From IMG/VR virus record IMGVR_UViG_2713896798_000010, positions 1-55,663 of that record: DNA of 55,663 bases. The stretch is one strand, 5' to 3'. Of the stretch, positions 33,001 to 36,000 are shown piece after piece. Position numbers: made by a program. The DNA comes from a virus (taxonomy: Duplodnaviria > Heunggongvirae > Uroviricota > Caudoviricetes). Positions within the stretch are counted from its first letter, which is position 1, and every line of letters starts with the position of its first letter.

Positions 33001-36000
33001 GCTTCGTAAAACTCCAGCGTGGCACCTTCAGTACGGTCAAGACTAATCGCCACATCTGGCAACAACAGTGACGGATACCCACCAATTTCCAGTGCCACAG
33101 TAACAGTAATCTTATCCGGGTAATTATTTATCCCTTTAACAACCAGTTCGTATTTTTTCTTCATCGCTTTACTCTCCCCGCGCCGCCTTACGCTTATCTT
33201 CTTTAATCTTGAAATAAAGGTTAGTCAGATACGTCAGCAGGCCAAACAGCAGACTCCCCAGCACACCGATTGCCACCCACTGGGACGGAGAGACTTTGTC
33301 CAGCAGCTGCAGTAACCAGTATCCCGTCCCCACCGCTGACGTGGTGTATGACACACCCGTTGTGATTTTTTCCATCTGATGTATGTCTCCGTCACCGCCG
33401 ACAGAAAATGAAAGTAAAGAAAAACAAAAAAGCCGCCAGTGTCACCCACTGACGGCCAACGCCAGGAGCCGTGATTATGGCATTCAGGCTCTGCTAAAAA
33501 TGCCAGATAACATTCCGACCACCTCCTGATTCAGGTTATAAATGACACAATATCTTGACAACATCCGTCACTATCTGTCAGAAAATGTACTGCCAGATAT
33601 AAGTATCATGTGAAGTACATCTACCCGTTTTAGCCAGCGTCCTTCAGAGTGGGCGCTGGCTTTTTTTATTATGCTGCGGGTGCATTTATCTCCAGCACCA
33701 GACTTTCTATCTCAACGCCATACGCTGCATTTTTTGTAACATCCGTCAGCGTCAGCGCATTCAGCCCCAGTGTCAGACTGTCTTTTATGACCTGGAATGC
33801 CGGGCCAGCCACTCCATTCAGTTTCGGAGTAACCGTGGCACTGCCGGCGGTGAACACCAGCTCCAGCGTCTGCCAGTCGTTACCGTAATCGCCGAACTCC
33901 CCCAGCTTCGTGTTTCCGGCTTTCCTGTGATGCATCAGATTCACTCTGCCGTCAGTGGTCTGAGTGAAGTACGACATCAGGAACGGATTACCGGTACCCG
34001 TCATCGCCACACCATCAGGAACGGGAGCATCCGTATACAGATAAATCCCCAGCCCGAACTGATTGTTGGTCAGTGCGCCTGACAGGCGGAACTTACAGGT
34101 CAGTCTGCCGCCCTGTGTCAGCAGGGTAATTGCGTCATCCACCGGATGCGTCAGGGACCAGGTTTTATTGCTCTGCTTGGTGATCTTAAATACACCATCT
34201 GACAACTGAATTCCGCCATCCTTAATGCTCCAGCCCTGCGCAGCAGCCTCTCCGGCTGCCGGCAGCAGGGAGATTGTGCGAACGGACGTATCTGCAGACG
34301 GACCCGATGGCGTGTTGCCGCCGGGCGAGGGTTTGATTTCCGGTGCCTTACCACTGATGAAGGCTGAGGTGCGCCCGGCTGCGTTCAGAATAGCGGTTGC
34401 CATACGATCCGGAATAATGCTCCTGCGCGCCCATGAACTGAAATGTGTCGGGCGGTTTGATGATACCTGGTTTCCATTCGTTCTCGATGCCGCACCGTAA
34501 TATCCTGATGCCGGAATATCCGGATCTTCTGCCGGCGCGTTAGTGGCGGTATTGACGCCGTTACCGTCTGTCATGAAGGGCACAAAATAAACGCCCTCAC
34601 TCTCCCTGTTTTTGTACGCCCCGTAAATGGTGTTGTACTGGGTGCCGTAGGTATTTTTCCAGTAATACGTCGTGTCACCACAAATCCACGGCACATCTGC
34701 AGCACTGCCACCATGGCACTGCGCGTTAAACACGGAGAGGTCAGCACGAAACTGTGCCAGCATGGCTGTAAACAGCGCAGGTTGCTGTGCGTGGGTGGCG
34801 GCGCTCATGTCAAACTCTCCCTGCATCCAGCACACCGCCAGCAACACATTTTTCGGGTTCTTCTGTAATGCAGCTTTAGTGCGCGCAATCAGGTCCTGAT
34901 ATAACGGTTTACCCACACCCCAGCGCGCCGAATCCTGGCTGGCCCCCGCGTCCGCACTGAATGTCCCCTCCGCGCCCTGGGTGAATGCCGAACCACCACG
35001 ACAGCATGGTACCAGCAGGATCCCCGCGTTATTCGGGATATACGGAAGCAGTTTTTTGGCAATATGTAAGCCCTGGCCGACACAGCCGTACTGCCCTTTG
35101 CTCAGGTCTGCCTTCGGATGATTCAGCGTACTCATATCCTGCACATCATGCAGGCAGTGGTCGGCCGGAATAATATCGTTATATCTGCAGGCAGCCCCAC
35201 CCGGCGTAACTGTACTGCGGCGCGCCAGCTGTTTAATGCGCGGATCCGGAGCATCGTATGAATCCGGCAGCGGAAGCCCTTCACCGTAAGCCATGGCATT
35301 GGACTGCCCGGCCAGTACGATGACGTAGTACCAATCCGGCTCAGTTGCACCACTGACCACCACATCACCTTCTGCTGTAATCGCCTGCATCAGGGTATAA
35401 GGGGTTATGGCCACCGGACTACCAAACGGCTGCCAGCCCTCTTTCAGTTTGTGTGTCAGCTTTTCCGCAAGGTCTGACGGCGACGCCGCCCTGACAACAT
35501 CATAATGTTTAAATGTCATTATTCCTCCCGGCCGGGATAGTGTATTAAATCAGATATGGAGTGGGCTGTAGTCCGGAAGCCTGAATGACACACGGGGACT
35601 ACAGCCCAAGAAATGAAAAAAGGCCACGCAGTTGCGCAGCCTGATAAACCCTGGTTAAAATCCACACGATAACAACACAACAATATCAGTATCTCATGCT
35701 ATTGCCCGAACCCATTCGGGCATTTTTTACCCATAAAAAATGCCCCTCCGGAGAGGGGCATGTTTGCATGCACATTCTTTTTCTTGCATGGTGCCGGGTG
35801 CCTCCCGGTGAATTCAGTATCAGCACCTGAATCCGCGATTATCACATATACCTGGTTGCTGATTGCCCCTCCGCACAGGGGGATTCACCATGCAGTAGTA
35901 TTTTTAATAAACAGTAAACAAAAAAATCAAGCATTATGCAGGCTGTTTCTTTTTATCACCGGCCACAGCAATACCACAATGCCGCAGACCAGAGCGCCAT

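Follow-up and report, generated by a model that had tools for sequence, protein, structure and literature searches.

The window analysed here, a 55,663-nucleotide stretch of DNA from a virus of the Caudoviricetes (IMG/VR record IMGVR_UViG_2713896798_000010, positions 1 to 55,663), carries a perfect inverted repeat just upstream of nanS-p, an esterase gene in the phage late operon. From the comparison of this repeat with its counterparts in related phages and prophages, we conclude that the selected object is an RNA helix of the late transcript, and neither a DNA palindrome nor a plus-strand RNA, because the substitutions in its arms are strand-biased and its folding is asymmetric between the two strands. 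With regard to function, we tentatively favour a reading that falls a little short of being probable, namely that the hairpin acts post-transcriptionally on the late mRNA, marking the boundary or securing the stability of its nanS-p-lysis part. The hairpin is previously undescribed, both in Rfam and in the literature searched; as a stem-loop it is simple and of a well-known sort, and its conceptual novelty is low.

The inverted repeat and the conservation of its pairing

The first-pass annotation had reported two complementary 12-mers, 21 nt apart and 44-88 nt upstream of the nanS start, and this description agrees with the window sequence: GGGCTGTAGTCC lies at 35563-35574, GGACTACAGCCC at 35596-35607, and the ATG of nanS-p at 35519. 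An extra pair, T35562/A35608, extends the repeat to a perfect 13 bp, with arms at 35562-35574 and 35596-35608 and with the stem ending 43 nt upstream of the ATG. Among perfect inverted repeats with a loop of 3-40 nt, it is the longest in the 55.7-kb window, and the arm sequence has no second copy within the window. Arms of at least 13 nt also occurred in 4 of 100 dinucleotide-preserving shuffles of the window, and the repeat taken alone exceeds the chance expectation just marginally; it is convincing because it is conserved among relatives. On the late (minus) strand, the RNA hairpin of the window folds with -28.0 kcal/mol (z = -6.0 against shuffles). Its 5' arm (35596..35608, 5'-UGGGCUGUAGUCC-3') is homologous across five arm types, its 21-nt loop (35575..35595, CCGUGUGUCAUUCAGGCUUCC) is pyrimidine-rich and differs among the arm types in both sequence and length (20-27 nt), and its 3' arm (35562..35574, 5'-GGACUACAGCCCA-3') shows C-to-U changes that produce G·U pairs in several lineages.

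Over the 311 bp that surround the repeat, prophage PPyecE_EH1910 matches the window exactly, Shiga toxin (Stx) 1a phages and H-19B are 88-89% identical to it, and Stx2a phages such as VT2-Sakai ~79% identical. In other phages the similarity extends only from the terminator upstream of the hairpin (t2, described below) onward, and in still others it covers only the coding part. Near-identical copies are present in 624 of 5,426 complete Escherichia coli genomes (~11%), with up to 7 copies per genome, several copies reflecting several prophages, and Stx1 and Stx2 phages, H-19B and VT2-Sakai among them, carry diverged versions of the hairpin. A scan of species-representative genomes returned five loci and added one hairpin copy, identical to that of the window, in Escherichia sp. 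MOD1-EC7003. A metagenome scan with a loose structural pattern gave 120 matches, all of them chance matches and none beside nanS-p.

For comparison, we combined representatives with 80 viral contigs found through the NanS-p N-terminus and ~200 found through two DNA patterns, and these ~290 phage and prophage loci comprise 56 distinct leaders and 31 distinct hairpins, which fall into five arm types. Type A, found in this window and in Stx1 phages, pairs perfectly (GGGCUGUAGUCC / GGACUACAGCCC), and type B, found in VT2-Sakai-like phages, has a 1x1 or 2x2 internal loop at pairs 9-10 (GCGGGCUGUAGUCU / GGACUUCAGCCCGC). Type C (e.g., in leaders L018 and L048; GCGGGCUGCGGUUC / GGACCGUGGCCCGC) forms 14 pairs, three of them G·U, type D (GER2 and AU5Stx1; GCGGGCUGUUUUUC / GGAGGGCAGCCUGU) forms 14 pairs, six of them G·U, and type E (PhiR5_2) is bulged.

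Pairing was scored in a gap-free alignment of the arms only, which covers 18 distinct arm pairs and was chosen since MAFFT misplaced the type D arm. Standard pairs occupy 89.7% of its cells, compared with 38-44% when the partners are slid by 1-3 columns, and pairs 2, 9, 10, and 11 have changed on both sides. None of 500 shuffles matched either the observed covariation score or the percentage paired, although the sequences are kin by descent, so that the counts are not independent and the shuffle statistics overstate independence; the direction is nonetheless consistent. RNAalifold predicts the identical helix from 11 whole leaders. Between type A and type C or D, 32-39% of the arm positions differ with the pairing left intact, and the loops are in general less conserved than the arms.

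The retained pairing favours one strand. The proportion of paired cells drops to 79.0% when the arms are read on the opposite strand, G·U fills 32 cells and A·C only 5, and a rough count of events gives ~15 wobble-forming versus 5 mismatch-forming changes. The predicted fold energies on the late and opposite strands are -28.0 and -25.2 kcal/mol for type A and -18.5 on both for type B, but -27.2 and -18.1 kcal/mol (z -1.8) for type C and -21.1 and -5.8 kcal/mol (z +0.35) for type D. All 31 versions fold on the late strand, with energies from -13.9 to -28.0 kcal/mol, and the late strand is the more stable one in 21 of 31. Compensatory and wobble changes maintain the pairing on one strand, as in a conserved cis-regulatory RNA helix. 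Of the two roles that the first-pass annotation had offered, an RNA-level element is favoured by the compensatory and G·U changes and by the strand asymmetry of folding. The other, a protein-binding DNA site, is disfavoured, as dyad symmetry in the DNA is lost in arm types C and D, which keep the RNA pairing alone through G·U. A palindromic operator was rejected on the same observation, together with the 32-39% difference between the arms of different types.

Several other identities were tried and rejected. Like intrinsic terminators (e.g., t2), the element is a G+C-rich inverted repeat in a non-coding region, but its loop of 21 nt (20-27 in relatives) is three to seven times longer than the ~3-8 nt expected of such terminators. 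The U-tract 3' of the stem is also absent, the late strand continuing with ACUCCAUAUCUG and the plus strand with AGAAAUGAAAAAAGG, and a terminator scan made no call at the site, in line with the earlier view that a simple terminator was unlikely. ARAGORN found no tRNA or tRNA remnant in the window. Rfam 15 gave no family match over 35562-35608 at gathering thresholds, and relaxing the search to E <=10 yielded only chance-level overlaps far under the gathering scores (Leu_leader, 12.3 bits; Chlorobi-1, 10.1 bits; suhB/mmgR, 13.6 bits). A dispersed repeat of the REP/BIME/MITE kind was set aside on account of the single copy in the window and the constant location before nanS-p elsewhere, and a riboswitch or ligand-sensing leader on account of the simple hairpin and of a loop that varies in sequence and length between arm types. 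In the window, an open 54-codon frame starting with TTG runs through the hairpin and ends in UAAUG; an upstream open reading frame (ORF) or other coding function was rejected, as every late-strand frame of type E contains stops and the differences in loop length are not multiples of 3.

Genomic setting and attachment to nanS-p

The minus strand is the late strand because the Q antiterminator gene (37176-37799) lies upstream of nanS-p and ORFs at the lysis-gene positions of a near-identical phage lie downstream of it. The gene nanS-p itself (33669..35519, minus strand) is the cistron downstream of the hairpin and encodes 616 aa with DUF1737, SASA esterase, and DUF6645 domains; GGGAGGA is located five nt upstream of its ATG (Shine-Dalgarno sequence 35529-35523). 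In the 5'-to-3' order of the late strand, an STnc100/PasD-type small RNA (sRNA) is followed by the reverse complement of AgvB, t2, a U-rich spacer, the hairpin, a linker, a mini-hairpin overlapping the Shine-Dalgarno sequence, and the start codon. The earlier description of the site as the "nanS 5' leader" is apt insofar as it is untranslated and immediately 5' of nanS-p on the late strand, but it requires amendment in that the site is intercistronic and nanS-p is an internal cistron of a Q-dependent late operon.

Upstream of the hairpin, the intrinsic terminator t2 (35615..35642, minus strand) has a 9-bp stem, AGGCUGCG/UGCGUGGCCU (35642-35621), and a U-run extending to 35615. It is located 7 nt upstream of the hairpin stem and is kept in every hairpin-bearing leader type as well as in the hairpin-less JLK-2012 type. 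The remaining part of the spacer between t2 and the stem (35609..35614, minus strand; …UUUUUUCAUUUCUU) is U-rich and single-stranded. Downstream of the stem, a G-poor linker of ~24 nt leads to the ribosome-binding site (35538..35561, minus strand) and is unpaired in both the minimum-free-energy and the consensus folds. It is followed by the mini-hairpin (35526-35537, minus strand), whose four pairs, UCCC-GGCC-GGGA, overlap the first bases of the Shine-Dalgarno sequence GGGAGGA; this pairing is retained elsewhere with other loops (GGCC, GGAAAG, UGCC, and GCCA, including arm types C and E).

Two sRNA genes precede the hairpin on the late-strand map. The AgvB anti-sRNA gene (35667-35728, plus strand; Rfam, 96.5 bits) encodes a 62-nt RNA on the opposite strand, with the repeat upstream of it and its 5' end 59-105 bp from the repeat. 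The STnc100/PasD-type sRNA, an Rfam match with its own terminator, is at 35919-35729 on the minus strand. The repeat falls outside the AgvB, STnc100/PasD, and AsxR RNAs, and AgvB is on the other strand. An STnc100/PasD-type sRNA is found before nanS-p in every leader type checked (in L003, L004, L005, L006, L007, L008, L010, L011, L018, and L036), the three hairpin-less types included, and in two copies in PhiR5_2.

When type A and B hairpins were searched for by themselves among the collected loci, with nanS-p not required, 155 of 156 hairpin sites had the nanS-p Shine-Dalgarno sequence and start 33-39 nt downstream of the stem, and the last site is cut by a contig end; the spacing from the stem end to GGAGGA is constant at 33-39 nt. 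AgvB-like sequence is present upstream in 106 of the 152 assessable hairpin sites and not in the other 46, and Rfam identified neither AgvB nor AsxR in TL-2011a, PhiR12_5, PhiR5_2, and GER2, where the hairpin is still there. The hairpin is nevertheless not fully separable from an opposite-strand promoter, because the AgvB-less phages TL-2011a and GER2 have a promoter-like site and a terminator there. Therefore, the case for nanS-p rests on strand and not on linkage, since the AgvB-less phages that were scanned keep the opposite-strand promoter-like site.

These arrangements bear on a role in the DNA or on the other strand, in which the repeat would serve the AgvB-type sRNA promoter as an upstream operator, or would be the 5' hairpin of a longer plus-strand RNA from a weak promoter-like site at the nanS-p start. 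By direct reading, the repeat is constantly just upstream of a TTGCGC-18-TA(A/T)(A/T)AT promoter-like site within t2. In phages lacking AgvB/AsxR, a different opposite-strand terminator occupies that place, and type B and D leaders have an ATGCCA-17-GATAAT promoter-like site overlapping the start of nanS-p (L006 1310-1338, minus; L008 1298-1326, minus). Types A and B also fold about equally on both strands. On the other hand, type D has lost both the palindrome and the opposite-strand fold, type C keeps them only in weakened form, G·U cells far outnumber A·C cells, the divergence between arm types is unsuited to a sequence-specific operator, and the promoter-like site of the window (35513-35541, plus strand; ATGTCA-17-GATAGT) matches only 8 of 12 positions. 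Such a role is, in our view, strongly doubtful. A transcript from the promoter-like site at the nanS-p start would begin ~12 nt before the hairpin and head toward AgvB.

In the AgvB-less phages TL-2011a and GER2, the corresponding position on the opposite strand holds a different, strong terminator (L006 1117-1138, minus; L008 1115-1137, minus), with a TTGCGC-18-TATTAT site upstream of it that reads as promoter-like, and these loci match no Rfam family. It is probable, judging from this arrangement, that an unannotated sRNA of another type (anti-sRNA-like, with a new body) occupies the AgvB position in both phages. In the window, the likely AgvB promoter on the plus strand comprises TTGCGC (35632-35637), an 18-nt spacer, and TAAAAT (35656-35661). 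This promoter and t2 (35642-35615) share the same DNA (35615-35661), such that the -35 hexamer is in the t2 loop and the t2 U-run corresponds to a plus-strand A-tract immediately before that hexamer; within this region, CTGCGCAA is unchanged in 9 of 9 aligned leaders. The late-strand antisense of AgvB (35615-35700, minus strand) includes a GU-rich run, UUGUUGUGUUGUU, and has its 3' end at t2. Its matches to OmrA-B (20.9 bits, E 0.075) and the GcvB 3' half (13.9 bits) are at chance level, and it necessarily imitates the GcvB seed sequestered by AgvB.

Possible functions of the hairpin

A boundary or stability element could work as follows. A cis-acting stem-loop (13-14 bp, with a 20-27-nt pyrimidine-rich loop) would form in the Q-dependent late transcript, and an endonucleolytic cut would fall in the U-rich spacer between t2 and the stem. 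After such a cut, the upstream RNA, containing the moron/sRNA segment, would end in the t2 hairpin, and the downstream nanS-p-lysis RNA would start with a stable hairpin that may hinder 5'-end-dependent attack and scanning by RNase E. The stem might also keep the upstream moron sequence, which varies widely between phages, from pairing with the nanS-p ribosome-binding site. A U-rich single strand between two hairpins is a typical RNase E setting, and stable 5' stem-loops are known to slow RNase E attack and scanning, as with the ompA 5' stem-loop and other obstacles to RNase E scanning. The layout in the window resembles that of a 5' stabilising stem-loop, with a stable hairpin (-28 kcal/mol) upstream of an accessible ribosome-binding site and an unpaired linker (35538-35561) between them, and the position of the hairpin is fixed, just outside the region expected to be covered by a 30S subunit. 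Stabilising stem-loops of the ompA 5' untranslated region share with it a stable stem-loop upstream of an unstructured ribosome-binding region, which here would be near a 5' end if the spacer were cleaved. In contrast to the ompA type, the nanS-p hairpin is internal to a long polycistronic phage transcript and has an unusually large loop of 20-27 nt.

The main mechanistic rival is that host RNase III cuts the stem itself and so divides the late transcript into a moron/sRNA part and a nanS-p-lysis part, in the way known from T7 early mRNAs and the lambda N leader. The hairpin resembles the RNase III hairpins of T7 (R1.1 type), of the lambda N leader, and of the lambda late transcript in being a stable, conserved double-stranded element between cistrons of a phage polycistronic transcript, and the lower stem, internal loop, and upper stem of type B loosely recall T7 R1.1. 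It differs from them in the absence of sequence similarity and in its shorter helix: classical E. coli substrates have roughly two helical turns, or ~20 bp of coaxial double-stranded RNA, whereas the continuous helix here reaches at most 13-14 bp, and in type B 8+4-5 bp. Shorter minimal RNase III substrates exist, so that the short helix lowers this claim rather than eliminating it, and we regard RNase III processing as rather improbable. By the title of a 1988 study by Daniels et al., cited in PMC7547250, RNase III processing sites in the lambda late transcript have reportedly been seen in vivo.

We give hardly any weight to translation control through a long-range contact of the pseudoknot type, in which the nanS-p Shine-Dalgarno sequence would be bound by the pyrimidine-rich loop and translation thereby repressed or timed. 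Runs resembling CUUCC, UCCUC, or CCUCC are present in every loop type, and the loops are 67-80% pyrimidine, but in six representatives the loop-Shine-Dalgarno duplex energies are no better than those of shuffled loops or random sequences (p = 0.09-0.82), and the consensus fold contains no conserved alternative pairing.

Apart from the kinship of the sequences mentioned above, several observations weigh against a boundary or stability element. An RNase E-like R-N-W-U-U motif (CGUAUU or CGUUUU) can be read directly in the spacer of most B, C, and D versions, and we infer its link to RNase E, but none is present in the window's own spacer; the consensus was for that reason excluded from the evidence. 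In type B, the internal loop at pairs 9-10 is variable, and A·C mismatches occur in the lower stem of three rare versions, which suggests that the constraint has been relaxed in some prophages. Three other nanS-p leader types (the JLK-2012 type, with its t2-like terminator kept, an AT-rich type, and an iraM-adjacent type) have no comparable hairpin, so that the hairpin is not required for nanS-p expression in general. Finally, no link was seen between hairpin damage and truncation or pseudogenisation of nanS-p, the numbers being small.

The hairpin-less leaders, the tolerance of an internal loop and occasional mismatches in type B, the shared ancestry, and the lack of association between hairpin damage and nanS-p decay would all suit an element with no function of its own, that is, a palindrome inherited with the t2-nanS-p junction, for example as what is left of a former terminator, and maintained through descent and through recombination among prophages. 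Such an origin would not by itself lead one to expect that pairing is retained with about one-third of arm positions differing between types, that four pairs have changed on both sides, that substitutions are biased to G·U on one strand, that loops are generally less conserved than arms, or that all 31 versions reach at least -13.9 kcal/mol on the late strand. We consider it possible but unlikely.

Returning to a boundary element, it is conceivable, though fairly improbable, that t2, the U-rich spacer, and the hairpin together form a dedicated processing or insulation cassette. Such a cassette would cut the late transcript into a moron half (stx, STnc100/PasD) and a nanS-p-holin-endolysin half, each with its own protected end and half-life.

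Known counterparts, other elements, and implications

A comparable layout occurs before the lambda S gene (45116-45167; L292 717-768), where a 13-bp (92%) inverted repeat with a 26-nt loop is located 19 nt before S and is followed by a small CCCC/GGGG hairpin beside the start codon, giving the same two-hairpin arrangement as before nanS-p. Unlike the nanS-p hairpin, the lambda region folds no better than shuffles (z = -1.2), and the two share no sequence homology. The sRNAs AgvB/AsxR (RF02702, RF02703) and STnc100/PasD share with the repeat a location in the moron-insertion region of lambdoid prophages, where AgvB lies right beside it; in contrast to them, the repeat lies on the strand opposite to AgvB and persists without AgvB/AsxR.

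A literature search found the arm sequences in no phage or E. coli paper, and the element is unmentioned in papers on AgvB/AsxR, StxS, the Pas sRNAs, and nanS-p. The AgvB/AsxR paper maps both sRNAs to the site 3' of PR' where morons are inserted. It gives Hfq peaks for AsxR (1268494-1268542, minus) and for the convergent EcOnc27 (1268411-1268490, plus), and in the portion of the peak table that was examined there is none at the expected place of the hairpin. A preprint on the Pas sRNAs places STnc100/PasD directly upstream of the esterase gene and notes no hairpin. The leader is not discussed in the nanS-p diversity paper or in a review of Stx phages (PMC8065619), the latter reporting z1466 (nanS-p) as one of the late genes whose induction accompanies that of stx2.

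Elsewhere in the window, a C4 antisense RNA, isrK, and a c4 a1b1 target element are arranged in tandem at 39074-39275 (minus strand), an antirepressor control module of the P1/P7 type that is immediately followed, on that strand, by a 193-codon ORF (38458-39039). The lambda cIII RNA thermoregulator is matched at full length at 48965-49023 (plus strand; 88.5 bits). Between Q and the sRNA cluster are a 252-codon ORF (36180-36938, minus strand) that has no Pfam match and whose translation looks hydrophobic by eye, and a 55-codon DUF3927 ORF (35927-36094, minus strand); the otherwise identical PPyecE_EH1910 carries different genes in this interval, including those for a methylase and a TciA/TerB-like protein.

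The hairpin sits between the toxin/sRNA moron site and the nanS-p-lysis genes. Even if it should be without measurable effect, it would still be a useful structural landmark of the conserved t2-nanS-p junction. A processing or insulation cassette, if real, would help to set the ratio and timing of toxin and sRNA expression versus lysis in Stx and related prophages. Should the hairpin govern how the late mRNA is processed or how stable it is, it would also influence the amounts of esterase, holin, and endolysin relative to Shiga toxin after induction.

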